Assembly: GCA_963836235.1 (NCBI GenBank)
Contig: CAWIIP010000004.1
Span: forward strand, 832,001 to 896,000
Direction of reading: 5' to 3'
DNA: 64,000 nucleotides
Source: an uncultured Pseudomonadota bacterium
GTDB taxonomy: Bacteria; Oederibacteriota; Muellerivitia; Muellerivitales; Muellerivitaceae
Positions 18,634 to 32,289 of the stretch are shown here, one piece after another. Every line of letters begins with the position of its first letter. Position 1 is the stretch's first letter. A program made the translations under genes and the position numbers. The notes under the pieces are model-generated. The model was not told where the DNA came from. It made no database searches and saw only the letters and a program-made list of their open reading frames with translations.

Positions 18634-21600
18634 TTGAACCAGTTAACCACCGTTCCACCGATTGGAATTTTTGAATTGACCTTAAATCGATATAAAAAGA
18701 TATTTCCACGGCATTTCATAAAACAGGTTTATCTTTTTTTCATTTTGTTTATGTTTTCGGTTGTCCCTTCCGTTTTCGCTTCCACTTATATCCCCTCACA
18801 GGCTTGGAGCCGGGACATCGATGCCGGGGGTTATACGGATGGTGCCCCGGTTGGTGGTTTTGGCGCCGGAAGCTATACTTGGAATTTCGCGGGGGATTTT
18901 TACCTGAGCCGCCTCAACATCGCCACCGCTCCCACCACCTGGACCAACAACAATCCCTATACGGTTGACGGCAATTGCGGTTTTTATATGTACCAAAAAC
19001 CCCTGGGCCAAGCCGCCGTTACCTACCGCCTGGATGCCGCCGCGTTGGGTACGGGTCAGGCCAACTATTACTCCCTCTTCCCGAAAGCCTGGGTGGATTA
19101 TTACGGTTCGGATTTTGCCTGTAAGGCCCGGGTGACGCAATTTACGCCTCTCATCCCCGGGGATTACACCCGAAGCAGTTATCCCGAGGGCATCTATGAG
19201 TGGGATCTTTCCAATCCCACTTGCACCACGACGGATGTGGCCATCATGCTGACCTGGGACAATAGTTTTGGGGGCACCACCGCGGCGGTCACCACCTCCG
19301 GGAGTGACACGGGACTGGTTTTAACCCGGACCAGCGGGAGCGCCACCAGCAAGTCCCAGGGTGAGTTCACCCTGGCTTGTTCCTCCGGCTCCGGGGTGAC
19401 GGTCACCTACCAATCCGCCACGGGCGTCGCCGCCCTTCAAACTTCTTTTGGGGCAGCCGGGACCTTGAATAATACCGTGGGGAACAACACCATCGGCGGT
19501 ATCGCTTTTAAAGTGACCCTCGCCCCCGGAAAATCGGTGAAAATTCCCATCGTGTTGGCTTGGGACATTCCCCTGGCCCAACCGGGGACCGGCGCCCAAT
19601 GGTACCGGGAGTACACCCGAACCTACGGAAAGACGGGGCTCAACTCTTTTTCCATCGCCAATGAGGCTTTGTCCAATTACGCCACATGGGAATCGTCCAT
19701 CGATAGTTGGCAAGTGGGAATACTCGGAGGGCCATACCCGGATTGGTTCAAACAAATGCTTTTCAACGAGCTTTATTATTACGTCATTGGTGGAACGCTT
19801 TGGGAGGCGGGGCAGTATGGCTCCACCCAATTTGACGCCGGGCCCGACATGTTCAGCAGCCTTGAATCCTATGTTTATACCTTTTACGGAACCTCGGACG
19901 TGCGTTTTTATAGTTCCTGGGCACTGGCTGAAAATTGGCCCAATATCGACAAACAGGAAGTCGAACAGTTTTGTGACAGCGTGACGATTAATAGCTCTCA
20001 AACTCTTCCCAGGCCGGTGGCTATTGGCACCTGCGCGCATGATTTCGGGAGTTTGAACGATGTCTTCACCGCGTGGAACGACTACACCTACCGGGATTCC
20101 ACCACTTGGAAAGACTTGAATTCCAAATTGGTTCTCATGGTTTACCGGGATTGGCAATTGACGGGACAAAGCGATAGCACCTTCCTCAATTATTGTTGGC
20201 CCGCCATTCAAGTAGCCATGGCCAAAGTGCACAGCCAATGCGTCTCGGGTGGCGTCACCTATAACCTGCCCATCTCGAACGGCATCGACCAAACCTACGA
20301 CAACCTGGGCCTTACCGGGGAGACCTCCTATTGCGGAAGCCTTTACCTGGCCGCCTGCGAGGCCGCCCAAGCCATCGCCACGACCGAGGGGAACGGCGTC
20401 TTGGCCACGACCTATCAATCCTGGTTGACCCTGGGGCAGTCCGACTTCGAGGGAAATCTTTGGAATACGACAGGGAATTATTACAACATTGATACCGGAA
20501 GCGGGGCGGGCGGTGTCACGGGCGTGGCCCGCATCATGAGCGACCAGCTTTGCGGACAATGGTACGCCAAGGCCTGCGGCCTGGCGGACGTGGTTCCTGC
20601 GACCCACGCGGTAAGCGCCTGGCAGGCGGTTCACGACAACAACTGGGCCAAGTTCGACGCGGGGGCCCATGGGGAAGTGAACGTGATGACCTCGGCCGGC
20701 AATATCGACACCAGCACTTCCCAAACTCAGGAAGCCTGGGTGGGAACAACTTGGGGCGCGGTGGCGGGAATGATCCAAGAGGGAATGTTCACCCAGGCGG
20801 TCTCCATCGGCAACAGCCTCTATAACAGCGTTTGGAACTTGGGGCAGATGTGGTATCGAACGCCGGAGGCTTGGACCACGGGCCTTACCAATATCCGCGC
20901 GCCTTATTACATGAGGGCCAACGCCATTTGGGGCGCCAAGCACGCTTATGACGTCACCTCTCCCTGCGGAAGCGCCAGTTGTACGCCCATCCCCACCTTT
21001 ACGCCCGTCCCGACGGCGACCTTAAATTGTCCCACGACCGCCACCCCTACACCCACCGCCACCGGCACAGCTACCTTAACTCCGTCTAAAACAGCCAGCC
21101 CCAGCCCCAGTTCGACGATCACTTTTTCCCCCACTTCCAGCGTGACCAAAACACTCACTTCCACCCCCACTTCAAGTCTCACCGGCACCCCAACTTGGAC
21201 TTCCACCCTCACCAGCACGAAAACCGCGAGCGCCAGCCCAACGCAAACCATCTCCCAGACCGCCAGTTCCTCGGCTACCTCTAGCGCCACCTATACCGCC
21301 ACCAACTCCCGGACATCCACTCCCATCTCCAGCTCGACCGCCTCCTGGACCTCCACACCCACATTCTCCTCCACGGCCACACCCACCAGCACGACCACCC
21401 AAACCCTCACCCGCACTCCAACCGCCACTATGACTTCAACCACTAGTTATACCGTTAGTCCTACCTTTTCGATGACGGCTTCCTTGACGCCCAGTGAAAC
21501 CGTAACCTCGACCGCCACAAGCTCCCGGACATCCACCCCTTCCTTAACACCCACTCCGTCCACAACGGCCACCCCAACCGGCACTGTCACCAGCACGCTC

Positions 21601-22455
21601 ACCATTACCTCGACTGCTACGGAAACCCCGACCACTAGCTCCAGTTCCACCGCGATGTCCTCGCAAACCCCCAGCGCCACCGCCACGACGTCCCTAACGC
21701 CCTCCACCACATTCACCCCCACTTTGACCGTCACCGAAACCTCGACCCCTTCATTAACCACTACACCCTCGGCCACTTCATCAAGCAGTCAAACTTCCAG
21801 TCCTACTTTGTCCTTCACCGTTACCTCCACGGTTTCCTCTTCCGCCACCAGCACCGCCAGCCCGACCGTCACCCTCACGCCCACTGGAACTAAAACTCCA
21901 ACTCCCACCTTGACCGCCACATCCAGTGCGACCTCCACGGCCAGCGCCACTCCCACCATGACTTGGACCAAAACATCCACCCCTAGCCAAACTCCGAGCA
22001 CCACCCTTACTTTCACAGTGACCACGACTTCCACCGCTTCAAGCTCCTTCACCCCCTCCTCAACCCCCTCCACCACCACAACCGCGACCTCCTCGGTCAG
22101 CGCCACCATGACACCCACTCCAATATTCACCGTCACCTTTACCCCCACCGCCTCCGCTTATTCCTCCCCAGTGACACTCCTGCCGCCCTATCCCAATCCC
22201 GATAAGGGAGGCGAACCAGTGACCATTGCCATTGAGGTGCCAGGTCCGGTGGTTGTGACTTGGAAAGTCTTCACCACGGCATTTCGAATGATCGATGGGG
22301 GAACATCTAGTTTTTCCGGAAACGGGACTATCCAATGGGATATGAAAGACAAGTTGGGAATCGAAGCGGCCGGCGGCCTTTACTACATTCGGGTTGAAGT
22401 CCAAACCAGCGGCGGGACTACACGGAAAATCTTTAAAATACTGGTAATTCGATAA
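18634..22455 (+). CDS. Secreted glycoside hydrolase family 116 (beta-glucosidase/glucosylceramidase-like), Thr/Ser stalk and C-terminal sorting-type domain
   Basis: GAPVGGFGAG, LFNELYY, LESYVYTFYGTSDVRFY, HDFG, WKDLN, DQTYD, DQLCGQWY, RTPEAW, YMR; end PYPNP...FTTAFR...GLYYIR...KILVIR; exact start uncertain. Confidence 0.88.
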   Translation: MNQLTTVPPIGIFELTLNRYKKIFPRHFIKQVYLFFILFMFSVVPSVFASTYIPSQAWSRDIDAGGYTDGAPVGGFGAGSYTWNFAGDFYLSRLNIATAPTTWTNNNPYTVDGNCGFYMYQKPLGQAAVTYRLDAAALGTGQANYYSLFPKAWVDYYGSDFACKARVTQFTPLIPGDYTRSSYPEGIYEWDLSNPTCTTTDVAIMLTWDNSFGGTTAAVTTSGSDTGLVLTRTSGSATSKSQGEFTLACSSGSGVTVTYQSATGVAALQTSFGAAGTLNNTVGNNTIGGIAFKVTLAPGKSVKIPIVLAWDIPLAQPGTGAQWYREYTRTYGKTGLNSFSIANEALSNYATWESSIDSWQVGILGGPYPDWFKQMLFNELYYYVIGGTLWEAGQYGSTQFDAGPDMFSSLESYVYTFYGTSDVRFYSSWALAENWPNIDKQEVEQFCDSVTINSSQTLPRPVAIGTCAHDFGSLNDVFTAWNDYTYRDSTTWKDLNSKLVLMVYRDWQLTGQSDSTFLNYCWPAIQVAMAKVHSQCVSGGVTYNLPISNGIDQTYDNLGLTGETSYCGSLYLAACEAAQAIATTEGNGVLATTYQSWLTLGQSDFEGNLWNTTGNYYNIDTGSGAGGVTGVARIMSDQLCGQWYAKACGLADVVPATHAVSAWQAVHDNNWAKFDAGAHGEVNVMTSAGNIDTSTSQTQEAWVGTTWGAVAGMIQEGMFTQAVSIGNSLYNSVWNLGQMWYRTPEAWTTGLTNIRAPYYMRANAIWGAKHAYDVTSPCGSASCTPIPTFTPVPTATLNCPTTATPTPTATGTATLTPSKTASPSPSSTITFSPTSSVTKTLTSTPTSSLTGTPTWTSTLTSTKTASASPTQTISQTASSSATSSATYTATNSRTSTPISSSTASWTSTPTFSSTATPTSTTTQTLTRTPTATMTSTTSYTVSPTFSMTASLTPSETVTSTATSSRTSTPSLTPTPSTTATPTGTVTSTLTITSTATETPTTSSSSTAMSSQTPSATATTSLTPSTTFTPTLTVTETSTPSLTTTPSATSSSSQTSSPTLSFTVTSTVSSSATSTASPTVTLTPTGTKTPTPTLTATSSATSTASATPTMTWTKTSTPSQTPSTTLTFTVTTTSTASSSFTPSSTPSTTTTATSSVSATMTPTPIFTVTFTPTASAYSSPVTLLPPYPNPDKGGEPVTIAIEVPGPVVVTWKVFTTAFRMIDGGTSSFSGNGTIQWDMKDKLGIEAAGGLYYIRVEVQTSGGTTRKIFKILVIR

Positions 22456-22526
22456 ATTGAAAAGAACATGGCAATCAACGCCAAGACTTAAGGAAATGGG
22501 ATTGGCTAGGTTCCTGGGTTACTGCG

Positions 22527-22556
22527 TTGTCCACGACGGGGACCCTTCGTGGACAG
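22527..22556 (+). repeat. 30-bp quasi-palindromic site, copy 1
   Basis: TTGTCCACGAC GGGGACCC TTCGTGGACAG. Confidence 0.95.
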
Positions 22557-22595
22557 GTAAAAGACCCATGAATACCTATTTCGGGAGTGAATTTA

Positions 22596-23024
22596 ATGGG
22601 AAATGATATTAAGGTTTGCTCAACCGACAATACCCAATGCGTAATTATAAAATTGTTGGAAATCGCAAAAGAGAATTATCCAAGTTTGAAAATATCAGTT
22701 GAGATTAAATTGACGGAGTTCAGCGGAAGTTCAACGGCTTGGATTAGCCAAGATGTTCTTAAAAGTTTCGCTAACTCATTAGATGAACTTAGTCGAAAAA
22801 GAACCGGGCAAGTATATTTAGAATCGATGAGTCCCAAGCATCTGCAACTTGCCATTTCTCCGTTAGATTCTGTCGGACATTTTCTCCTAGAAATTACGGT
22901 ATCAAAACATGTTCCTATCGACCGAAAAATGGTGGATCACCAGGTGTCAGGCGGCTTCGAACTTGACCCTGGAAATCTCCCTGAACTAGTTCGTGAGTTT
23001 AAAAATTTAGTATCAAAGTGTTAA
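22596..23024 (+). CDS. Hypothetical protein, resembles WapI-type immunity proteins (cassette 1)
   Basis: GGGAG RBS before ATG 22596; pattern FSGSSTAW...LKSFANSLDEL...GQVYLES...LDSVGH; family call from memory of the pattern only. Confidence 0.55.
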   Translation: MGNDIKVCSTDNTQCVIIKLLEIAKENYPSLKISVEIKLTEFSGSSTAWISQDVLKSFANSLDELSRKRTGQVYLESMSPKHLQLAISPLDSVGHFLLEITVSKHVPIDRKMVDHQVSGGFELDPGNLPELVREFKNLVSKC

Positions 23025-23029
23025 ATTCA

Positions 23030-23059
23030 TTGTCCACGATGGGGACCCGCCTTGGACAA
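23030..23059 (+). repeat. 30-bp quasi-palindromic site, copy 2
   Basis: TTGTCCACGAT GGGGACCC GCCTTGGACAA, 5 nt after stop 23024. Confidence 0.95.
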
Positions 23060-23145
23060 TAAAATGGATAATGTTGGCCTACCCCGCTTTTCTTTTATAA
23101 GCCGGGTAGATAAAAAAAGTTAATAGAATTCAATCGAGGCTGAAA

Positions 23146-24465
23146 ATGGAATCTCCCCAGACAAACACGCGTCCGAAAGCACTCCTGTTTTCGGTCAGAA
23201 CGCCCAGGGTAACTGATACCGAAGCGATGGAATCGATGATCGAACTCGAACGGCTGGTGACGACCTTGGGTTACGAGGTGACCGGAACTATGTCCCAGCG
23301 GCAACCCAGCACAAAAGGGGTCACTGTGGTGGGTGAGGGAAAACTGATGGAACTCGCCCAACTCACCGGCGGAAAGGGCTACCGGGATAGAGTTAAGGGG
23401 CAGTCCGAAGCGCCAAAACAGGAACAAGTCCCGGCCTCGACTCCCGAGGGACCCGCGATGGTGGTCGTTTTTGACTGTGATTTGAGCCCGTCCCAGATTC
23501 GAAATGTCGAAGAGGCTTTGGGGGTTCCGGTGCTCGATCGAACCGGGGTGATTATCGAAATCTTCAACCGGCACGCGAAGACCCGGGCGGCGCGACTCCA
23601 GGTCGATATCGCGCGCCAAACCTATCAGGCTCCCCGTCTCAGGGATACGGGGGTTGGAAAGGAACGCCAGTCTGGCCGGGGATCCGGGGAAACCATCATC
23701 GAGACGGAAAAGCGCAAAGTCCGCGACCGCCTGGCTGAGCTGAGGCACGAGTTAGAAGCGGTTCAAAGAGAAGAGGAACATCGCCGGATGAAACGCGCGG
23801 AACTGCTCGGCGCCGCGCTCGTGGGCTACACGAATGCCGGAAAATCATCCCTCATGCGGGCGCTGACCGGCAGCGACGTCCTGGTGGAGGACAAGCTCTT
23901 CGCGACCCTGGATACGACGATACGCGCCCTACAACCAGAGACCCAGCCGAGAATTCTGATCACCGATACGGTGGGTTTTATCCACAAGCTTCCACACGAT
24001 CTGGTAGCGTCCTTCCGTTCCACGCTGGATGAGGCCCGCGGCGCCGCCCTGCTTCTTTACGTGGTGGATGCCGCTGATCGAAACTTTCGTTCCCAGCTCG
24101 AGGTGGTTCGGGAAGTCTTGGGTGAGATTGGCGCCGACAAAACGCCATATCTTCTCATTCTCAATAAGGCCGACTGCTTGAGCGAATGGCAGAAGCAGGT
24201 TCTCGGGTCGGAGTATCCGGACGCGGTTTTAACCTCGACCCGAAGTCCCGAGGACATGCGAATCGTCAGTGAACGCCTCATTCATTTTTTCGAGAAAGAC
24301 ATGATTGAGAAGGAAATTCTCGTTCCCTATAAAGCTCAAGGTGTCATCCGAGAAATGCGTTTGAATATGAAAATCTTGAGGGAGAGCTTTACCGAAGAAG
24401 GCGTTCTACTGCTGGTTCGCTCTCGTCCGATTGACCTTCAGCGCCTGAGTAAAGTGATGAAGTAG
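23146..24465 (+). CDS. hflX: Ribosome-splitting GTPase HflX (cassette 2)
   Basis: GEGKLMEL, DLSPSQIRN, DRTGVIIEIF, G1 GYTNAGKS, LFATLD, DTVG, NKAD. Confidence 0.93.
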   Translation: MESPQTNTRPKALLFSVRTPRVTDTEAMESMIELERLVTTLGYEVTGTMSQRQPSTKGVTVVGEGKLMELAQLTGGKGYRDRVKGQSEAPKQEQVPASTPEGPAMVVVFDCDLSPSQIRNVEEALGVPVLDRTGVIIEIFNRHAKTRAARLQVDIARQTYQAPRLRDTGVGKERQSGRGSGETIIETEKRKVRDRLAELRHELEAVQREEEHRRMKRAELLGAALVGYTNAGKSSLMRALTGSDVLVEDKLFATLDTTIRALQPETQPRILITDTVGFIHKLPHDLVASFRSTLDEARGAALLLYVVDAADRNFRSQLEVVREVLGEIGADKTPYLLILNKADCLSEWQKQVLGSEYPDAVLTSTRSPEDMRIVSERLIHFFEKDMIEKEILVPYKAQGVIREMRLNMKILRESFTEEGVLLLVRSRPIDLQRLSKVMK

Positions 24466-24659
24466 TGCCTGCGGTGTGTGCCGCCCTTCGATTTTAGATA
24501 TAGAGGGCGGTACTACACCTGCATCGAGGCTTCAAGCCGAGATGCAAGCTTTGGTTGTACCTGTCGAAATAATAATGCGGTAGGTACCCCGTACGATTCA
24601 CATGTGAATCGTGAACCAGGGGTGTCCCAGACGGGCTCGCAAGCTTGGTTGATAAGAAA

Positions 24660-24689
24660 TCGTCCACGACGGGGACCCGTCGTGGACAA
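24660..24689 (+). repeat. 30-bp quasi-palindromic site, copy 3
   Basis: TCGTCCACGAC GGGGACCC GTCGTGGACAA. Confidence 0.95.
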
Positions 24690-24744
24690 ACAAAATAACT
24701 TGAATTATGTCTGCAATTGAAATATTTCGGGAGTGGATTTTAGG

Positions 24745-24754
24745 TTGTCCACGA
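24745..24754 (+). repeat. Isolated left half-site of the 30-bp element
   Basis: TTGTCCACGA, exact match to the left arm, 55 nt after copy 3. Confidence 0.65.
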
Positions 24755-24765
24755 AAGAGGCCTTT

Positions 24766-25656
24766 ATGAAAACCATAGTCCTTTTCCTGATGGAGGCCGT
24801 ACTTCTTTTACCCACCTTTTTATGTGCCCAAACTCAAACTCCATCGCTGAGTGAAGATTGGACGCCAAAAGTCGAATTGGTATGGCCCACTCCCCGACCA
24901 AGCCTCGGGGATCACGATGACCATGTTTATCCCGCCGAGATCAATAAGATTAAACGCGTAAAACTCCCTTTTGATCTATTCACGTTTTTTGAAAATTTGG
25001 ATCTTGCCTTAGAACGTGATAGTGACGAGTCTGACATTGATGAAAAAGACGTTAAGAAATGGAAGGAGGATTACCAGAAGCTTCAAGAACTGGGTTGGTC
25101 GAAGGGAGAAGGCCTTGACATGATCCGGGAAAAATGGGTTCGCAAAAGGGGTTCCTTCGGCTTTGTATGGTTTGGAAGAAGCATTTACTTTATCGATCTT
25201 ATGAAACCGACAGAAGCCATTGTGCTGTTGTCGGGAACCTACGGAAGGGACGCAAGGCCGGCCAAGGAAAGGGGCAAATTCGCGAATGAGGTGGATGGAA
25301 TTGAAATTGAAAAAATAGGTGATGATACCTATCGGATTTTTGCGCAGGGGCTCGGCGGGGACATGAAGTTCGGTTTTTCTCCCAGCACTGAAGTTTGGGA
25401 TTACAAATTAAACAGCGATTTTATTACTTATTATGATTTTAGCCACTCCTTCGGGAAAGACCTGGAAAAGAACGGCCACCGGGATATCGTGGTCTATGGC
25501 GAAGGATATCGTCAGCTCGGACCCGGAAATGTGCATTATGAGCTGCAGGGTCTCGGCGTGTTTTCTTGGAACGGGAAAAAATGGATAAATATAAGCGACA
25601 AGGAAAAAGAATTTTTGGCCGAATTGTCAAAGATTTTCCCGGCCTACAGCCTCTGA
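24766..25656 (+). CDS. Secreted hypothetical protein (cassette 3)
   Basis: GAGG RBS, ATG 24766, signal peptide MKTIVLFLMEAVLLLPTFLCA; C-terminal DLEKNGHRDIVV...VFSWNGKKW (FG-GAP-like). Confidence 0.7.
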   Translation: MKTIVLFLMEAVLLLPTFLCAQTQTPSLSEDWTPKVELVWPTPRPSLGDHDDHVYPAEINKIKRVKLPFDLFTFFENLDLALERDSDESDIDEKDVKKWKEDYQKLQELGWSKGEGLDMIREKWVRKRGSFGFVWFGRSIYFIDLMKPTEAIVLLSGTYGRDARPAKERGKFANEVDGIEIEKIGDDTYRIFAQGLGGDMKFGFSPSTEVWDYKLNSDFITYYDFSHSFGKDLEKNGHRDIVVYGEGYRQLGPGNVHYELQGLGVFSWNGKKWINISDKEKEFLAELSKIFPAYSL

Positions 25657-25662
25657 ATGCAC

Positions 25663-25692
25663 TTGTCCACGACGGGGACCCGGATTGGACAG
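25663..25692 (+). repeat. 30-bp quasi-palindromic site, copy 4
   Basis: TTGTCCACGAC GGGGACCC GGATTGGACAG, 6 nt after stop 25656. Confidence 0.95.
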
Positions 25693-25718
25693 GAGTACAA
25701 CGTTATGTGGAGGGCAAG

Positions 25719-27569
25719 ATGGAGAACTGGCGTCCTTGGTTATATCCCGACCTTAGTTTCGGGAGTTATTTTCGGAAATATCCATACGTATTCCTATTTA
25801 GCTTTATCTGCGCTTTTTGCTTTATTTTCAATATCGACACCCCCTGGTTCTTCCTCAATCCCAGCACCCGTCTCTCGAACGTAGGGCACTTCACTCCTTG
25901 GATCTACTGCTGTATGTTCGGGTTGCCTCTCTACTCATTCATTCACCTACTACTCAACAGCCCCAGGTTGAAGAACTTCAAGTTCCACGTAACTATCTAC
26001 ACCTTAGGGTTGGCCGTCCTGTTGGGGATGTTCTTTAGCTTGAGCGAGGGTGATCGGCTTTGGTCCGATTTTTTCCATCCTTTCTTATGGGTTTCCTTGA
26101 CCGCCTTTTTGTGGCCTCTCGTGGGCTGGGGCCTTTCAAAGGACGAAACCCACAGCTATTTTTGGAACTTCCTGGCGGGTCTGCTCAAGGCCTTTTTGGC
26201 CTTTTTCCTTTGTGTCGGAATGTTCCTATGGCTTAACAGGTTCTTCGGCGGTTTTTTGAACGGTAATTATTTAATCCCCGCCTGGGCCCGGAATTTTTTC
26301 AATGCCAATAATATCATCGGTCTGGCTTTGCAGGTCGTGACCCCCTTGGTCTTTCCCTGGTACATCCTTGGGAGCTTGGAAAAAACTTTGGGCACGGCCG
26401 GGGAAACGCAACCTGAGGGGATCCCTTTTGGGCGAAGGACAACCCTCGGGGTCTTAGGCCTGTTGGCGGTCGGGTTCCCCCTTGAATTTTGGAAAGTCAT
26501 CCAACAATTGCGTTCTCACCAATCCATCTATTTCTTCGATGAAAAAATGCTCTTGTTCCTATTCGCCTTGCTTTCCATCGGACTCTTGCAGGCGGGGAAA
26601 GTGAACTGGCCGGAAAAGTGGCTGGGGATCTATCCCAAGGTGGTATCCGGCCTTTCCCTTTTGTTGGTTCTCATTTCCGGATTCACTCTTCCGTTTAATT
26701 TGGGAAGGAATGATATAGCTGGGGTTTATTATTCGCTGATCTACATAGTTTGGTTCGGCTTGGTTTTTATTTATTTTTTCTTCCGTCCCCAGATGGGCTG
26801 GGTAAGGCCGCTCTTAACCCTGTGGGTGTTATTGCTCCTCACCCTGTGGGGCCCCTTGAGCCCGGCTAGTCTAGCCTTGAGGGATAATGAAAAAGGATTG
26901 AAAAATTACATGGTCCAGGCCGGCCTATTGAAAGACGGCCTACTGGTAAAGGCCCCGCCGCCGCAGGATCCGAAACACCCCCTGAACCAGGTCGTTTGGC
27001 GGCTTCAGGACTTATTTCGATGGGATGGATTGGACTGGCTGAAAGGTTCCTTTCCCCTTGAATTGCGGAAACTGGATTGGGACAAGGAAAAGGGCCTCGC
27101 CAACCTGCCCAAACTGATGGATTGGCTGGGCCTGCCCCTGATGAACGGCCAAACCAACGTAAACGAATACCAATCGTACTCCGTTCAATACAACCGGCGG
27201 GATCGGACGAAGCATTTTGGGCCTTACCAGCTTGTGGATTTCAACGCCTATCAAGGAGGCGGAGCGCCCAGTAATGCCCCTGAATTTTATCTCTCCCTGC
27301 CTAAGCCGAGCGAAAGCCTGGAGCTTTACGACAATGGAAAGTTGGCGGGCGTGATCCCATTGAAGAAGGTCTATGCCCATCTGGAAAAGTATGAGCGGGT
27401 CCATACCCAACGGAGCTTGGTTCTCCCCAAGGACATGGAATTAGAGTATGAAAATAAAAAAATACAGGTGGAGATCAATATCACTTATCTTCAGTTAAGG
27501 GTCCTCGAAGGGAAAGGTGTCATTCAATATTGTTCGGGGGAAATGCTGGTCAGGCGAAAAGGTCGATAG
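25719..27569 (+). CDS. Polytopic membrane protein, DUF4153-like (cassette 4)
   Basis: GGAGG RBS and ATG 25719 downstream of the repeat; many TM segments then LTLWGPLS...GLLKDG and a soluble C-terminal domain. Confidence 0.65.
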   Translation: MENWRPWLYPDLSFGSYFRKYPYVFLFSFICAFCFIFNIDTPWFFLNPSTRLSNVGHFTPWIYCCMFGLPLYSFIHLLLNSPRLKNFKFHVTIYTLGLAVLLGMFFSLSEGDRLWSDFFHPFLWVSLTAFLWPLVGWGLSKDETHSYFWNFLAGLLKAFLAFFLCVGMFLWLNRFFGGFLNGNYLIPAWARNFFNANNIIGLALQVVTPLVFPWYILGSLEKTLGTAGETQPEGIPFGRRTTLGVLGLLAVGFPLEFWKVIQQLRSHQSIYFFDEKMLLFLFALLSIGLLQAGKVNWPEKWLGIYPKVVSGLSLLLVLISGFTLPFNLGRNDIAGVYYSLIYIVWFGLVFIYFFFRPQMGWVRPLLTLWVLLLLTLWGPLSPASLALRDNEKGLKNYMVQAGLLKDGLLVKAPPPQDPKHPLNQVVWRLQDLFRWDGLDWLKGSFPLELRKLDWDKEKGLANLPKLMDWLGLPLMNGQTNVNEYQSYSVQYNRRDRTKHFGPYQLVDFNAYQGGGAPSNAPEFYLSLPKPSESLELYDNGKLAGVIPLKKVYAHLEKYERVHTQRSLVLPKDMELEYENKKIQVEINITYLQLRVLEGKGVIQYCSGEMLVRRKGR

Positions 27570-27610
27570 TCTTGGGCTGGCCGAAAATCCGCTTAGTGAG
27601 GAGTGGTGGC

Positions 27611-27640
27611 CTGTCCACGACGGGGACCCGTCGTGGACAA
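27611..27640 (+). repeat. 30-bp quasi-palindromic site, copy 5
   Basis: CTGTCCACGAC GGGGACCC GTCGTGGACAA. Confidence 0.95.
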
Positions 27641-27668
27641 CGAAACGGTACCTAAAAGACCTAACAAG

Positions 27669-28175
27669 GTGAATGATTTGGAAGCCAAACAGCATGATGA
27701 ATCCAAACAAGTGAAAGTTTTGTTCAGGACACCTGCCGAGAAGGACGAAGCTTTTGTGGAAACCCTCTGGGCTATTCCACAAGGTGGCGACCTCTACAAG
27801 TTAGATAACAACCCCATCTATCCTTATGGTGTTTCTTCCGGAGATATTGTCGAAGCGCCTTTCGATCCAGATGAACAGTTTCGAAAGTTTACAAAAGTCG
27901 TAATAAAATCTGGAAACAAAACGGTAAGAATTATTTTTGATAAAAAAGTTGAGGAATCAAAAGAGGATCAAGCAATTTTGGATAAGTTGGTTCAAATGGG
28001 TTGTGACTATGAGGGTTTGAACCAGATACATTTTTCTATAAATGTTCCCTCTTCAGCTAATTTTAAAGAAGTTTGCGAATTCCTAACGGCTTTAAAAATT
28101 CAATGGGAACATGCCGATCCGAGTTACGACGAACTTTATGGTGGAAAGAATAAAAAGTGGTGGTGGCCGTTTTGA
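27669..28175 (+). CDS. DUF4265 domain protein (cassette 5)
   Basis: ETLWA...YKLDNNPIYPYGVSSGDIV...SGNKTVRI...GCDYEG...SINVP; start placed at GTG 27669 after the repeat. Confidence 0.8.
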   Translation: MNDLEAKQHDESKQVKVLFRTPAEKDEAFVETLWAIPQGGDLYKLDNNPIYPYGVSSGDIVEAPFDPDEQFRKFTKVVIKSGNKTVRIIFDKKVEESKEDQAILDKLVQMGCDYEGLNQIHFSINVPSSANFKEVCEFLTALKIQWEHADPSYDELYGGKNKKWWWPF

Positions 28176-28177
28176 GG

Positions 28178-28207
28178 TTGTCCACAACGGGGACCCGGCG
28201 TGGACAG
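28178..28207 (+). repeat. 30-bp quasi-palindromic site, copy 6
   Basis: TTGTCCACAAC GGGGACCC GGCGTGGACAG, 2 nt after stop 28175. Confidence 0.95.
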
Positions 28208-28235
28208 CGGACAGAGTGAATCAGAAAGGGATTTT

Positions 28236-28319
28236 ATGAAACACAAACTGATGTTATTAGCTTTTTGTTTTATTATGTCACCAATATTTAGCGCTGATTC
28301 AACAAGTGGACAAAATTAA
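28236..28319 (+). pseudogene. Truncated cassette remnant: signal peptide only
   Basis: AAAGGGA RBS, MKHKLMLLAFCFIMSPIFSADSTSGQN*; contains right-arm sequence GTGGACAA at 28306-28313 just before the stop. Confidence 0.5.
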
Positions 28320-28563
28320 CAATAAAATCGGTGTGGTCTGGCTTGAAATTCACTCCTTGTAAAGTTCGTGCAGTGGCCGCGATATCATTTCTTCGTTGCC
28401 ACGCTGAACTTCGACTTTCGTCCCAAATCTCGCTTACCCGCAGACCCTGGCTTTACACTCGGAAAAAATTCGGAGGGTGACCGCTTGACCATTACTAAAA
28501 GGATTTAGTTTAAGGACCAACTTTCGATTTTCCGATGGAAAGTTTTTTTCGATCGATGGTTTT

Positions 28564-28592
28564 TTGACTCCCCGCCGAAACTGGGGTTTAAT
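28564..28592 (+). promoter_or_regulatory. Putative sigma70 promoter of the LacI regulator
   Basis: TTGACT-N17-TTTAAT. Confidence 0.5.
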
Positions 28593-28678
28593 CTATTGAG
28601 CCAACAGTAGGCACCTCGGTTTTTGCGACGGGTTTTTGTTCCAAAGTTAAAATTCCGATTATTCCGTTAGGAGAAAAA

Positions 28679-29737
28679 ATGCAGGTTACCATTTATGAAG
28701 TCGCCGAAAAGGCGGAAGTTTCCATCTCCACTGTTTCCCGTGTCATTAACAACAAGCCCAATATCCCCGAATACACCAAGCGCAGGGTCTTAAACGCCAT
28801 TGAAACCCTCAACTTCAAGCCCAATCTTATCGCGCGGGGCATGGCCTCCAAGAAGGTCAACCTGGTCGAGGTTTTTTTTTCCTGGCACAAGCAGAGCCCC
28901 TGGTTCACGGACCTCCTCCATGGAATCAATAAGGAGTTGCGGGAACAGGAATACGGCCTTCTCGTCAACACACTCGATGGGGCGGCTATTTTCAACCCCA
29001 AAGAAGTCCATCGAAGGCTCTTCCACAATGCCGTGGACGGAGTCCTGATGATCGCTCCTTATTTGGAGGAGAAGGATCTTCTTCTTTTGGCGGAAAGCGG
29101 CGTGCCGATAACCCTCATCGGGTACCGGTCGCAAAATAAAGCCATCAGTTTCGTTGACAGCGACAATATCAACGCGGCTTCAGCGGTGGTAAGCCATTTA
29201 TTCAAGTTAGGACACACTCATATTTCCTGCATTACCGGTCCTACGGAAACTTCGCCCAACGCCGCCGACCGTCTCGAGGGATATCGGCAGGCCATGGTCC
29301 GGCATCAATTGAAAATTCCGGGCAGTTACGTAATAGGGGGGGATTTTGTCCGGCAGACGGGTAAGGAAGCGATGCAGAAGCTTTTGGCCCTGCCCATGAG
29401 ACCGACAGCTGTTTTTGCCTGCAACGATGAAATGGCCTTAGGGGCTTGGCACGCCCTCCAAGAAGCGGGGTTGACCGTTGGAAAAGATATGGCCCTGGTG
29501 GGTTTTGACGACATGTTCGAGGCCAGTAAGGCGCCTTATTCCCTAACCACGGTGCGACAGGATTGGATGAACATGGGAGTGAAAGGGGTCCGGATTTTGA
29601 TGGATAAGATTCGGCAAAAGGGGCATGGGGAATCGCAACAGGTTCTCGTCCCCGGGAAGTTGGTTGTGCGCGGTTCCTGCGGATTTCCGGTCCAAAGCCC
29701 CAAAAGGAAAGTCGCCCAGCCGCTCCTGAAACCTTGA
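28679..29737 (+). CDS. LacI family transcriptional regulator
   Basis: TIYEVAEKAEVSISTVSRVIN HTH; PTAVFACNDEMALG, VGFDD, LTTVRQ. Confidence 0.95.
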   Translation: MQVTIYEVAEKAEVSISTVSRVINNKPNIPEYTKRRVLNAIETLNFKPNLIARGMASKKVNLVEVFFSWHKQSPWFTDLLHGINKELREQEYGLLVNTLDGAAIFNPKEVHRRLFHNAVDGVLMIAPYLEEKDLLLLAESGVPITLIGYRSQNKAISFVDSDNINAASAVVSHLFKLGHTHISCITGPTETSPNAADRLEGYRQAMVRHQLKIPGSYVIGGDFVRQTGKEAMQKLLALPMRPTAVFACNDEMALGAWHALQEAGLTVGKDMALVGFDDMFEASKAPYSLTTVRQDWMNMGVKGVRILMDKIRQKGHGESQQVLVPGKLVVRGSCGFPVQSPKRKVAQPLLKP

Positions 29738-29879
29738 TCGAGGGGATATTCCGCATTTTTTGTAAGTTTACCCATAAGGTGTTTTTCGTTGGTGCTTTTC
29801 TCGCCCAGCGCCTCCTTTTCTTAAATTGCGTTTAAAACTTTAATCATCTTTATGATTCGGCGGCCCAGCCATGATAAAG

Positions 29880-30001
29880 ATGACGATGACGGCGAGTGCG
29901 TGTGACGTGGCGGGAGAACTGATATCGTGGTCCTGAACTTGAACGATCTCTACGCCACCTTCGTGCAGAAACAGACTTCCAAAATTGTACTTCAGCGGTA
30001 A
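29880..30001 (+). pseudogene. Relic of a C-terminal Ig-like sorting domain
   Basis: MTMTASACDVAGELI, then in another frame IVVLNLNDLYATFVQKQTSKIVLQR*; parallels [13 protein letters not shown]...IAVVESLN...[11 protein letters not shown] of the 9932 protein. Confidence 0.4.
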
Positions 30002-30241
30002 TGGAAACTTTCTAAAAACCCCCTCTCAAAAATTTTGAGCATTTGACGTCAGAGCTTTCTAGAAGTTAGATTTCTATTTTTTGCCATTTTCATAAAAGCG
30101 TTTTCGCAGAGATAGCAAAACAAGGTTTTTGTGTGGAGGCGTGACTTTTAACTTTTCGTGGCGGCTTACCAAAGGCTACCCTCTGTGAAATAGACTTTTT
30201 TTCTTCGTCATGAGGGAAGAATTTGGATAAGGAATGGGATT

Positions 30242-30685
30242 GTGAAGCAAAAGTGGTCAAAAGAAAAAATTGTTGAAACTATCCGAGAATTGCGAAAACA
30301 GAATATCGACATCTCCGCGGGTAACATTTCAAAAAATTATATTCCCCTTTTCATGGCTGTTTGTTCCAAACGCTACTTTTCCAGTTGGGGGAGCGCGGTA
30401 ACCGCTGCCGGCATTGATTATGAGCAAATAATGGAGGCGGGGCAAAAGCGCCGCCTTCAAAAATTAAGGAAATGGTCAAAAGAAAGGATACTGGAGGAAA
30501 TCCGCGGAACAGGTTTCCGGGAATTGGTGAAAACTTATCGGGACCGGTTGCCACTCTATTCAGCCGCACGAAAGGAATTTGGAAACTGGCATCTGGCCCT
30601 GGCGGCTGCGGGTTACCAACTCGCGAAGGGGACTTATAAAAACTCAAAGCGGATTAATTCGGCTAAGAAAAAGGAAATCCATTGA
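30242..30685 (+). CDS. Basic protein with two homing-endonuclease-associated-type repeats (putative DNA binding)
   Basis: KWSKEKI...YFSSWGSAVTAAG and KWSKERI...FGNWHLALAAAG. Confidence 0.65.
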   Translation: MKQKWSKEKIVETIRELRKQNIDISAGNISKNYIPLFMAVCSKRYFSSWGSAVTAAGIDYEQIMEAGQKRRLQKLRKWSKERILEEIRGTGFRELVKTYRDRLPLYSAARKEFGNWHLALAAAGYQLAKGTYKNSKRINSAKKKEIH

Positions 30686-31156
30686 TTGGCAGAAAAAAAG
30701 AAAACATCCAACTTGTTCTTCCGAAAAAATTGGACTACTTTTTTTCAAAGGGATGATTCGCGACCGTGAAAGGAATCCCTGAAAAGGGGATTCACATCCT
30801 GTTAAAACCCAAAGTTTTATGGGCGGCATCGGCCACCCGTCCGCGGCTTGGGTGATGAGGTCCCCCTGGGTCGAAGCCCCCAGTTGAGACCCACGGTTTG
30901 GTTGTGCCAATTCCAAAGGGGAATTGGCCCCATGGGATGATGACTGTGGTGAACTTGCCGAATCCGCTTCCGGCGCGGAGGGGTGTATCATTTGGGTTCC
31001 GTCGGGCGTCATCTCGTTAAATCCGGCGACCTTATCCGTCCCGCCCGGCTTATGGAAAAAAATGATCCTGGCCGCCACGGGTTTTTTGGATATAAGCATT
31101 TCAGGTAGTTTTTGGATGAAACTCCACCTATCTTTTGCGTCCGCGGAAAAGATCAA
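30644..31156 (-). CDS. Doubtful hypothetical protein or degraded gene
   Basis: 170-codon ORF fills the gap but has a weak TTG start, no motif, and overlaps the 30242 gene end. Confidence 0.25.
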   Translation of the reverse strand: MIFSADAKDRWSFIQKLPEMLISKKPVAARIIFFHKPGGTDKVAGFNEMTPDGTQMIHPSAPEADSASSPQSSSHGANSPLELAQPNRGSQLGASTQGDLITQAADGWPMPPIKLWVLTGCESPFQGFLSRSRIIPLKKSSPIFSEEQVGCFLFFCQSMDFLFLSRINPL

Positions 31157-31234
31157 ATATAGAAAAGATATCTTACGTTATCATAAAACCCATCTTCCCC
31201 CAGACAATTCAAAGCTTTTCGATATAATGTGCCC

Positions 31235-32289
31235 ATGAAAAATTCAGCCAAGCGCTCCAAAAAAAAATTAGGCCCCATCCGCATCGGGGTGATCGGCCTG
31301 GGCCAGATCGCCCTGAAGGCCCATCTTCCTGGTTACGCCAAAACAGAAGGTTGCCTGCTGACCGCAATTTATTCGCAAAGGGAAGCCCACGCCAAGCAGG
31401 TGGCGATGCAATATGGAATCCCTCATATCTATAAGGATTGGCGGCGTCTTTTGGAGTCAGACCACGTTGATGCTGTCTCCATTTGCACCCCGAATTTCAC
31501 CCATGCCCCCATCTCTTTAAAGGCCTTTCGGGAGGGCAAGCACGTGATGTTGGAAAAGCCAATGGCCCTTACCCGGGCCGAGGCGCTGGACATCATTCGG
31601 GCGGCGAAAAAAGCGGCCGGGTTTTGATGATTCACCACAATATGCGGTTCGATCCGGCGGTTCGGACGGCCGAGAAGTTGTTTCGGAAAAACATTATCGG
31701 CGACATTATCGCTTTTCGGGGGGCCTTGACCCACCGGGGGCCGCAAGCCTGGAGCCCTAAAGCCACTTGGTTTTTCAACAATTCAAAATCAGGCGGAGGG
31801 GCCCTGATGGACCTGGGACCCCATGTCTTTGACAGCCTCAGTTTTCTGCTGGGGGAATCCTTGGTTATGGCAGGGGCGGTGGGGGTATCGGGGAAGGGAA
31901 TCAGCGTCGGGAAGGGGATACCCCAAACCCAGGACGAGATCCATTGCGCCTGCACGCTTCGGGTTAAAACCGGGGCGATCGGGACGGCGACCGTGGGCTG
32001 GGCGGACACCGACTACCACAACCGTTATTATTTTTACGGAACCAAAGGCACGCTTTCCATCAACCTGGCCAAGGGGGACCCGATTACGATTGAGTACCGG
32101 AACCAGGAAGGAAAGGTTTTTCCGTCTTTGGATAAGGGAAGCTTCTCTCCCAGTATTTATGAGCATTTCATTGATTGCATCCAGAAGGGTAAAACACCTT
32201 GGGTTTCGGGGGAAGAAGGATTAAGAACCGTCGAGTTGATTGAAGCCGGCTATCGATTGATCCGCCATCCCGCCGTACCTGTCATTTGA
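31235..32289 (+). pseudogene. Gfo/Idh/MocA oxidoreductase split by a -1 frameshift
   Basis: N-half IGVIGLGQIA...ICTPNFTH...EKPMA stops at 31627; C-half HNMRFDP...GGGALMDLGPH continues in the -1 frame; junction at A6 run 31607-31612. Confidence 0.8.

Follow-up and report, generated by a model that had tools for sequence, protein, structure and literature searches.

What does a short palindrome do that recurs six times behind successive genes, each time on the same strand? This question is raised by positions 22527 to 28207 of a 64,000-nt stretch of DNA (referred to here as the window; G000:C4:832001-896000), which belongs to G000, a 3.97-Mb genome of five contigs from a family of candidate division FCPU426. 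An initial annotation of the window had read the palindrome as a recombinase target rather than an RNA hairpin. Our comparisons support that reading through cassettes that recur elsewhere, breakpoints that fall within the core of the palindrome, the absence of covariation and the absence of a matching Rfam family. On this sequence evidence, the description that suits the element best is that of a recombination site belonging to a lineage-specific gene-cassette system of candidate division FCPU426, and we regard it as likely that the repeats are 30-bp double-strand recombination sites, which would bound mobile, mostly single-gene cassettes arranged head to tail in arrays.

Together with its flanking TT and AA, the consensus reads TTGTCCACGAC-GGGGACCC-GTCGTGGACAA, in which two arms of 11 bp enclose a core of 8 bp (11-8-11, 30 bp), and it is palindromic apart from a central GA. 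On the + strand of the window, exact matches to GTCCACNNNGGGGACCCNNNNTGGAC were found at six positions (22529, 23032, 24662, 25665, 27613 and 28180), against a mean of 0.00 matches in 100 dinucleotide-preserving shuffles of the window. All six copies lie directly 3′ of a gene, and all on this one strand. Copy 1 (22527..22556), which reads TTGTCCACGAC GGGGACCC TTCGTGGACAG, follows the gene of a GH116 glycosyl hydrolase and starts the array; copies 2 (23030..23059), 3 (24660..24689), 4 (25663..25692) and 5 (27611..27640) come next, and copy 6 (28178..28207) is the last recognisable one, no more full or half sites being found beyond it in 28200-31400. The blocks GTCCAC, GGGGACCC and TGGACA are identical in 6/6 copies at a constant spacing, which bears out the invariance that had been described for them. 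The four bases to the right of the core were likewise exactly as annotated (TTCG, GCCT, GTCG, GGAT, GTCG and GGCG in copies 1 to 6), and their variation is not compensated on the left. The left arm is not strictly invariant: its inner triplet is GAC in 4/6 copies, GAT in copy 2 and AAC in copy 6 (1/6 each), and these changes are not compensated by right-side bases either. The arms of copies 3 and 5 are perfect.

Larger sets of copies bear on whether it is the sequence or the structure of the site that is conserved. In G000, where 64 copies were counted at ≤2 mismatches, the inner pairs 5-20, 6-19, 7-18 and 8-17 show standard pairing in 49, 40, 42 and 37 copies, respectively, and two-sided compensation was found at no pair. 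Among the metagenome matches listed, the same pairs are formed in 135, 111, 123 and 148 of 211 non-redundant copies. The covariation analysis that had been proposed as a check of the recombinase reading thus gave no compensatory changes in either set. In the metagenome set, whose positions fixed by the search pattern carry no conservation signal, the left inner positions 6-8 hold 1.47, 1.10 and 1.11 bits, the right inner positions 17-20 hold 0.76, 0.47, 0.65 and 0.74 bits, and the T (-1) and the A (+26) on either flank hold 1.59 and 1.61 bits; 22 of the 30 positions are nearly invariant across genera. From the pairing and information figures we infer that the outer arms and the core are conserved as blocks and not for their pairing. 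Folded as single-stranded DNA, the six window copies reached -6.2 to -14.7 kcal/mol, two of them being no better than shuffles. A terminator scan of the + strand scored none of the six, no T-run follows any of them, and the bases 3′ of the site are A-rich. The absence of a U-tract was therefore correctly annotated, and an intrinsic terminator, which calls for a T-run after the hairpin, was rejected for the six window copies. A known RNA family was rejected as well, since the covariance models of Rfam 15 gave 0 matches at E ≤ 1 across positions 22000-29000 of the window.

The window copies are part of a set that is organised in arrays throughout the genome. Sixty of the 64 copies in G000 fall into 12 clusters of 2-13, the other 4 being singletons, and copies are spaced at a median of 971.5 nt (range 234-3923 nt); a reversed-pattern control gave 1 and 0 matches. 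When other arm spacings were searched for a second class of site, only spacing 14 was enriched in this genome (64 matches versus 0-13). Of the neighbouring pairs closer than 6 kb, 48/48 share a strand and 0/48 are inverted, and the clusters have the layout of integron-type arrays, with at least two same-strand sites less than 4 kb apart that bound cassettes. The suggestion that direct repeats would lead to excision and integration finds comparative support in these 48 pairs and in the cassettes that stand in other contexts, as described below. Perfect 9-nt arms occur in 11/64 copies, and array polarity is nonetheless kept; the sign of the local GC skew is followed by 62/64 copies. A same-strand open frame of at least 60 aa precedes 58/64 copies at a median gap of 21.5 nt, as compared with 982/2000 random positions. 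Each interval between sites holds one gene or gene pair. The products include BrnT/BrnA, HigB/HigA, MazF, PIN, GNAT, HAD, LOG, NHL-repeat, SUFU, WapI-like and DUF4265 proteins, a P-type ATPase, a sigma-54 activator and a lone Cas1, while many cassette genes belong to no family. Arrays start directly 3′ of ordinary genes, namely those for GH116 (in the window), atpG, pyruvate:ferredoxin oxidoreductase and a DUF7948 protein. No dominant protein family was found within 2 kb of the metagenome copies listed, the largest cluster having 3 distinct members.

Two local features of these arrays were also recorded. In three copies (G000:C2:427140, C2:1231179 and C2:1943059), an extra 23-45 nt (ATTCGACRRGC...ATGRCAGGCC) separate the core from the position expected for the right arm, and at C2:1231179 no recognisable right arm follows the extra nucleotides; these may represent a longer variant of the site or a tiny insertion. 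The 10-site array at C4:135628-145860 (in G000:C4:132073-148999, L009, and L010) is flanked by a gene for a TraG/TraD-like coupling protein and by SRAP, UmuD/UmuC-like and ArdC genes, and because of these flanking genes it apparently lies inside an integrative conjugative element.

Several cassettes were found again in other surroundings. One unit of repeat, cassette and repeat, 1276 nt in length, is 100% identical at C2:1195350-1196625 and C4:57528-58803 of G000 between unrelated flanks, and its downstream site has the rare left variant TAC at both places. A BrnTA cassette recurs at 91% identity, and one of the matches ends 17 nt into the downstream site, after GGGGACCC. For cassette 3 of the window (24662-25681), the sampled ends (217 and 226 nt, 443 in all) are 100% identical to L080/L081 from another genome, with a spacing of 1003 nt in both and with different neighbours. 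On its upstream side, the whole of site copy 3 and 200 nt downstream of it are 100% identical to L081, the upstream flank being different; on its downstream side, the identity with L080 (100%, 217 nt) stops at core position 16 of site copy 4. The left half of site copy 2 recurs with its upstream flank at G000:C1:403316, where the right half differs. Cassettes that G000 has in common with a second genome, G001, at 80-88% identity are repeat-bounded and stand in another order, next to other neighbours. Furthermore, over a stretch of 4659 nt with atpA and atpG, the identity between G000:C1 and G001:C9 is 99.957%; it ends after GTCCACACTGGGGACCCG, the divergence lies directly behind GGGGACCCG, and the right arms and everything beyond them differ.

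The linkage between the variable bases of the site and its flanks was tested on 435 non-redundant copies with 60-nt flanks, taken from G000, stretches of relatives and public contigs. From the 45 pairs that share downstream DNA, 26 (3 groups) were left out because they have a group II intron in common rather than a cassette. Where the upstream flank alone is common (23 independent groups), bases 17-20 agree in 13, 14, 11 and 15 of 23, against a background of 0.46-0.54. Where the downstream flank alone is common (17 independent groups), the same bases agree in 14, 14, 15 and 15 of 17, and left bases 6-8 in 16, 13 and 9 of 17, the background for the latter being 0.87, 0.75 and 0.75. Variants of the core were available in three groups only, in which positions 14 and 16 track the downstream DNA and position 9 the upstream DNA. 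On these comparisons, a site's left half stays linked to the upstream DNA and its right half to the downstream DNA. Since the halves separate, the exchange takes place inside the invariant core. The aligned copies place it between positions 8 and 17 and, judging from the three core variants only, perhaps between positions 9 and 14; the 8-17 interval fits a 2-bp crossover and an 8-bp overlap region equally. The arms show no compensation because the two half-sites that each hybrid site is composed of have had separate histories. A separate observation concerns a 12.2-kb block with ATP synthase genes (G000:C1:382841-395053 versus G001:C9, L184:8037-L185:249), which is 98.8-100% identical between the two genomes. 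Their other common regions are 75-84% identical, and in G001 the block has repeats at both ends; it may be a recent transfer or the result of a bin mixture.

We propose a mechanism in which a dimer of a sequence-specific recombinase, provided in trans, would bind both arms of a site. Two sites would then synapse, and strands would be exchanged in the core. Recombination between sites in direct orientation would yield a cassette circle that carries one hybrid site, and this circle could enter any other site. The non-palindromic GA would set the polarity, and it is proposed that every array has one orientation because the non-palindromic centre fixes it. An enzyme of the serine type would make a 2-bp staggered cut at GA, which would give the site a 14-2-14 layout, while for one of the tyrosine type the 8-bp core would be the overlap region; the initial annotation had mentioned both types.

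The distribution of the site was determined in relatives at ≤1 mismatch. It was present in 21 of the 24 genomes scanned from the same family and in 1/1 genome of the sister family, at 0 to 86 copies per genome, and in 0/15 genomes from eight other families of the phylum; the controls gave 0 everywhere. Contigs representing one genome per species contained exact matches in at least 146 stretches, in metagenome-assembled genomes. Most of the matches listed are labelled candidate division FCPU426, and a few Candidatus Firestonebacteria, Proteobacteria bacterium, uncultured proteobacterium or uncultured bacterium. At least 160 stretches of metagenome contigs carry the site; a search of viral contigs gave 0 matches, and the array region had no match in plasmid and phage collections.

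Which enzyme would act on these sites? The leading candidate is a short serine recombinase of 278 aa (G000:C2:163827-164660) with Resolvase and Recombinase domains and no zinc ribbon. The 3′ end of its gene lies 35 nt from the terminal site of an array, to which the gene is convergent. This junction of gene and terminal site was found at seven loci in all, with the 3′ end ~15-75 nt from the site: in G000, G045, G042 and G022, in G018 with a gene fragment only, at a 26-codon gene remnant beside the last site of another array (G000:C1:399281-399358), and in the metagenome locus L354. Across genomes, the gene and the site alone are conserved, whereas both flanks, including the adjacent cassettes, differ. 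The dN/dS ratio of 0.09-0.16 among five genes (dS between 1 and 1.9) indicates that the recombinase is under purifying selection. In a large protein collection, 19 clusters were found at ≥74% identity, all of 275-283 aa, and the matches below 61% identity are ordinary large serine recombinases with a zinc ribbon; the best NCBIfam matches were CcrB and CcrA at 75 and 70 bits, against cut-offs of 900 and 700. The consensus has the inverted half-sites and the asymmetric central 2 bp of a serine-type site. Moreover, a recombinase with the 'Recombinase' DNA-binding domain and without a zinc ribbon is expected to need half-sites shorter than those in 40-50-bp att sites, so that a 30-bp site would fit the short serine recombinase.

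The half-site nearest to this gene often has a variant arm, AAAAGGAAC (the B arm), which also occurs within arrays and rarely on both sides of a core. An 'empty platform' of the form B-core-B was considered as an analogue of attI and rejected, as it was present in 3/31 genomes only and, in G012, within an array. Because B-core-B is rare and was found within an array, we treat the B arm as a variant arm and not as a proven primary site. Provided that the repeats are cassette sites, it is plausible, though at somewhat less than an even chance, that the enzyme is the short serine recombinase and that it would cut at GA in a 14-2-14 site. The broader proposition, that an enzyme of ~277 aa, which would have arisen from a large serine integrase when the zinc ribbon and the coiled coil were lost, captures and shuffles the cassettes as a serine counterpart of the integron, is put forward more tentatively.

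A number of observations weigh against these proposals. Recombination was not directly observed: public contigs on the locus showed no joints, only loose ends at repeats, and since the public runs cover at most 0.23 of the locus with nothing but such ends, they are silent on excision. The linkage test has low power for the left arm, where the background agreement is 0.75-0.87. In G018 and G002, a homologue of the window from ~31270 onward comes right after the GH116 gene. As the two genes adjoin there, the stretch from ~22456 to 31270 would be either an insertion or a loss in G018 and G002; this array-less locus contains no repeat at all, so that the model does not account for the start of an array. 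With regard to the enzyme, PF00239 serine recombinases occur in only 12 of the 31 family genomes in which recombinase and Cas1 profiles were counted. They were not found in G005 (40 copies of the site, 98% complete), G010 (24 copies, 99%), G021 (37 copies, 90%) and G023 (40 copies, 89%). In G001, the serine recombinase gene is ~3 kb away from the nearest recognised site. Within G000, 11 of the 12 arrays have no intact recombinase gene at their end, one of them ending at the 26-codon remnant, and among the metagenome loci listed only 1/155 has a recombinase homologue within 2 kb of the site. The seven junctions may moreover go back to one ancestral arrangement, in which case they are not independent. 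Cassette arrays known as CALIN (clusters of attC sites that lack an integron integrase) are, however, usually without an integrase, so that the patchy occurrence of the serine recombinase weakens the case for this enzyme and does not exclude it.

The best-surviving alternative, which we consider possible but doubtful, retains the cassettes and assigns them to a clade-specific Xer-like tyrosine recombinase, for which the 11-8-11 site would have an 8-bp overlap region, as in the main reading of the initial annotation; the cassettes would then behave as Xer-exploiting elements or dif modules. Some other enzyme would account for the rest of the probability. In G000, this is a protein of 353 aa (C1:328834-329895; Phage_int_SAM_1 and Phage_integrase domains), the single-copy gene of which sits among housekeeping genes. 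Its orthologues are 56-79% identical in 23/24 family genomes and the sister family, and the best matches elsewhere reach ≤35%, which matches the clade in which the site is found. An overlap region would have to be invariant, as the 8-bp centre is, and the protein occurs in site-rich genomes that lack a serine recombinase. In other families of the phylum, ~300-aa matches were obtained at 150-173 bits, which we read as the XerC/XerD type; no such match of ~300 aa was found in the window's family, where only adjacent pairs of 337-399 aa, in four genomes, exceeded ~130 bits. The correspondence of protein and site is nevertheless a single clade-level coincidence, and the protein also occurs in G017, which has no site at ≤2 mismatches and is 97% complete, and in G003, which has four sites. 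There is no site near its gene, which never lies beside an array, and 64 direct, dispersed sites for an enzyme of dimer resolution would be a danger to the chromosome. The site has the 11-8-11 layout expected for this type of enzyme, and the protein scored 168.9 bits with the XerC model, the cut-off of which is 335. As an observation in its own right, the family and its sister family have one divergent Xer-like recombinase, and no ~300-aa match of the XerC/XerD type was seen in them.

Two other enzymes were considered and rejected. A Cas1-type integrase had been suggested by a Cas1 gene after a repeat, but Cas1 is present in only 9/31 family genomes. The lone Cas1 gene of G000 (C1:431818-432858, L003:4818-5858, − strand; Pfam 3.2e-68) is in a cassette position, 46 nt past a repeat, and a Cas1 fragment in G012 (C4:1340629-1341036) adjoins the repeat at C4:1340508. 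Six tyrosine recombinases of ~369 aa, which are 57-70% identical to each other, were set aside as only one of them is within 6 kb of an array; these are read as integrases of integrative elements because an excisionase and conjugation genes accompany them at one fully annotated locus.

It is improbable, in our judgement, that the repeat is instead a repetitive extragenic palindromic (REP)-like or regulatory palindrome (an mRNA 3′ hairpin, an operator or a nucleoid-protein site) that rides with horizontally acquired genes. The breakpoints would then be a passive outcome of recombination, homologous or illegitimate, between 30-bp identities. REP elements are extragenic, imperfect palindromes that follow genes in many copies; they are dispersed, often in inverted pairs, and flank the gene of a REP-associated tyrosine transposase (RAYT). 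The copies described here resemble them in being numerous and extragenic, directly after stop codons. Perfect arms in 11/64 copies, the stability of some hairpins and the lack of a local recombinase at most arrays would also suit such a palindrome, as would three IS200-like Y1 genes in G000 that pass the NCBIfam REP-associated tyrosine transposase model. Yet the copies are clustered and all direct, neither dispersed nor in inverted pairs, have no T-run, and show no link to the Y1 genes. The Y1 gene at L013:18449-19408 has no neighbouring site, 8/24 family genomes, including G018 with its 86 sites, yielded no Y1 homologue, and such homologues occur in families without the site. A REP/RAYT system was rejected on the grounds that the Y1 genes do not track the site and that its copies are clustered and direct. 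The absence of covariation, with inner pairs broken in a third to half of the copies, and the near-invariance of 22 positions across genera argue against a palindrome of this kind more generally. In addition, ~80% of the exchanges fall between positions 8 and 17 by a rough estimate, whereas an even spread predicts about a third.

Very unlikely is a site that works as a single-strand hairpin, either as a miniature attC for an integron-type integrase or as a loop nicked by an HUH enzyme. The GC-skew sign that 62/64 copies follow would be in keeping with it, and so would the two group II intron families that target the site, one of which inserts directly 3′ of the palindrome; class C group II introns recognise DNA stem-loops and insert immediately 3′ of these. 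However, it is the sequence and not the structure that is conserved, a loop of 2 nt is too small to form and a GGAC tetraloop appears in the folds instead, and the Y1 enzymes do not track the site. The arms are equal in length and therefore imply no extra-helical base. An integron integrase was found in 0/31 family genomes, in which the best match to TIGR02249 scored 84.5 bits against a cut-off of 265 (77.9 bits for the Xer-like protein of G000). The passages of PMC2727003 that deal with attC describe R″-L″/L′-R′ boxes, extra-helical bases and an unpaired spacer, with the exchange in the R′ box. In our site, the outer stem, the middle with its mismatches and the inner GGG/CCC stem are reminiscent of the R box, spacer and L box described there; exchange in the outer R′ box moves nearly the whole attC site (PMC2727003), whereas here the halves separate.

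The group II introns were located precisely. An intron of ~1.94 kb (Rfam RF02005 and RF00029; open reading frame with RVT_1 and GIIM) is present at G000:C2:1476545-1478501 (L007:7546-9502) and G000:C1:223032-224988. In each case it splits a copy of the repeat one base past GGGGACCC, and the right arm TCGTGGACA resumes at its 3′ end; the two intron copies are 99.85% identical over 1959 nt. A second family (Rfam RF02003) starts directly after the palindrome, GTGGACA being followed by TCGTGCCAG. It was found behind many different copies at no fewer than four loci of other genomes (L224, L340, L358 and L275) and is not in G000. Group II introns also target attC sites, as stated in the relevant part of PMC3001079.

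In the window, all genes of the array are on the + strand, as is the resident GH116 gene after which it starts (18634..22455; Pfam DUF608, 1.3e-86). Cassette 1 has an open reading frame for a WapI-like immunity protein of 145 aa (22587..23024; PF24716, 2.5e-09), and cassette 2 one for an HflX-type GTPase of 439 aa (23146..24465; GTP-bdg_N, MMR_HSR1 and GTP-bdg_M). The latter is the sole HflX homologue of the genome (tblastn, E ≤ 1e-10), and no DNA match to its gene was listed among the five relatives searched. The frames of cassette 3 (24733..25656; 307 aa) and cassette 4 (25566..27569; 667 aa as listed) have no Pfam family, while that of cassette 5 (27603..28175; 190 aa as listed) encodes a DUF4265 protein (PF14085, 2e-26). 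The real starts of the cassette 4 and cassette 5 genes are probably downstream of sites 4 and 5, respectively. A second short repeat, TATTTCGGGAGTGRATTT, is present at 22577-22594, 24723-24740 and 25755-25772, 49-91 nt past three of the six sites and just ahead of the next start codon; it may be a leader or ribosome-binding region common to some cassettes. Past the last site, at 28236-28322, inspection by eye revealed an open frame of ~28 codons that resembles a signal peptide and then meets an early stop, and which may be the stump of another cassette gene.

Several known systems share features with these arrays. The crossover sites of serine recombinases (res site I, hix, gix and the att sites of large serine integrases) are inverted repeats of ~28-30 bp with an asymmetric central dinucleotide that sets polarity, and their outer arms and centre are conserved while the middle is looser. 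These systems have one or few sites and serve resolution, inversion or phage integration; the layout of the present site is alike, but here dozens of sites bound gene cassettes, and serine catalysis is putative. In the staphylococcal cassette chromosome (SCC) of staphylococci and enterococci, Ccr recombinases of the large serine type (~450-560 aa) move cassettes of many kb with short direct repeats at a single insertion site in rlmH, and elements without ccr stack in tandem and are mobilised in trans. Stacked units without an enzyme are common to both, whereas the cassettes described here are of ~1 kb, form arrays at 12 loci and would be served by an enzyme without a zinc ribbon. Xer-dependent modules and integrative mobile elements exploiting Xer (IMEX), such as pdif modules and those of the CTX type, use short inverted-arm sites to exploit a host tyrosine recombinase encoded elsewhere. 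Dif-type sites are 11-6-11, with modules between oppositely oriented sites. The resemblance lies in the short inverted-arm sites with a central region that bound gene modules and in the stacked enzyme-less units; the present sites differ in being 11-8-11 and all direct.

Integron sites of the attC type have a length of 60-140 bp and are defined by structure, in contrast to the 30-bp site of fixed sequence found here. In other respects CALIN are similar, as the sections of PMC4889954 (Cury et al. 2016) devoted to them depict same-strand arrays of mostly single-gene cassettes, every one of which ends in an imperfect palindrome, and name arrays without a local or even a genomic integrase as the rule. 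Several arrays per genome, most of them without a local recombinase, many toxin-antitoxin and unknown genes, and introns that target the site complete the likeness, as far as that account extends. The differences are that the exchange is central here and not in the R′ box, that there is no IntI in the 31 family genomes, and that the candidate recombinase lies at the downstream end, convergent with the array. Measured against four features of an integron, the system thus agrees in array layout (1/4) and departs in integrase, nature of the site and crossover point. The nearest ecological analogue is rAID-1 of Bacteroidales, for which the portion of Ross et al. (10.1101/471110) that bears on it describes co-oriented orphan immunity genes, repetitive intergenic sequences 'reminiscent of integrons' and a gene for a XerD-family tyrosine recombinase at the 5′ end of each array. 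The window array likewise has WapI-like and DUF4265 genes; compared with that description, it has no adjacent tyrosine recombinase, and the cassette content is far broader. Word-matching searches of the literature, made without subscription journals or supplements, returned no description of the present system.

To our knowledge, gene-cassette platforms are known essentially from integrons, that is, from one clade of tyrosine recombinases with folded single-strand attC sites. Here, an integron-like architecture is built on a short, sequence-defined site of the double-strand type in genomes without an integron integrase. It is found throughout a family of FCPU426, at about twelve loci per genome, and it is rich in toxin-antitoxin and immunity functions. 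If the repeats are indeed the sites of a cassette system, cassette capture would have evolved more than once, and if the enzyme is a serine counterpart of the integron integrase, cassette platforms would have arisen independently on both great families of recombinases. The compact 30-bp site, perhaps together with a small recombinase, would then be usable as a tool, and the arrays would provide a handle on gene flow in an uncultured lineage of soil and peat.

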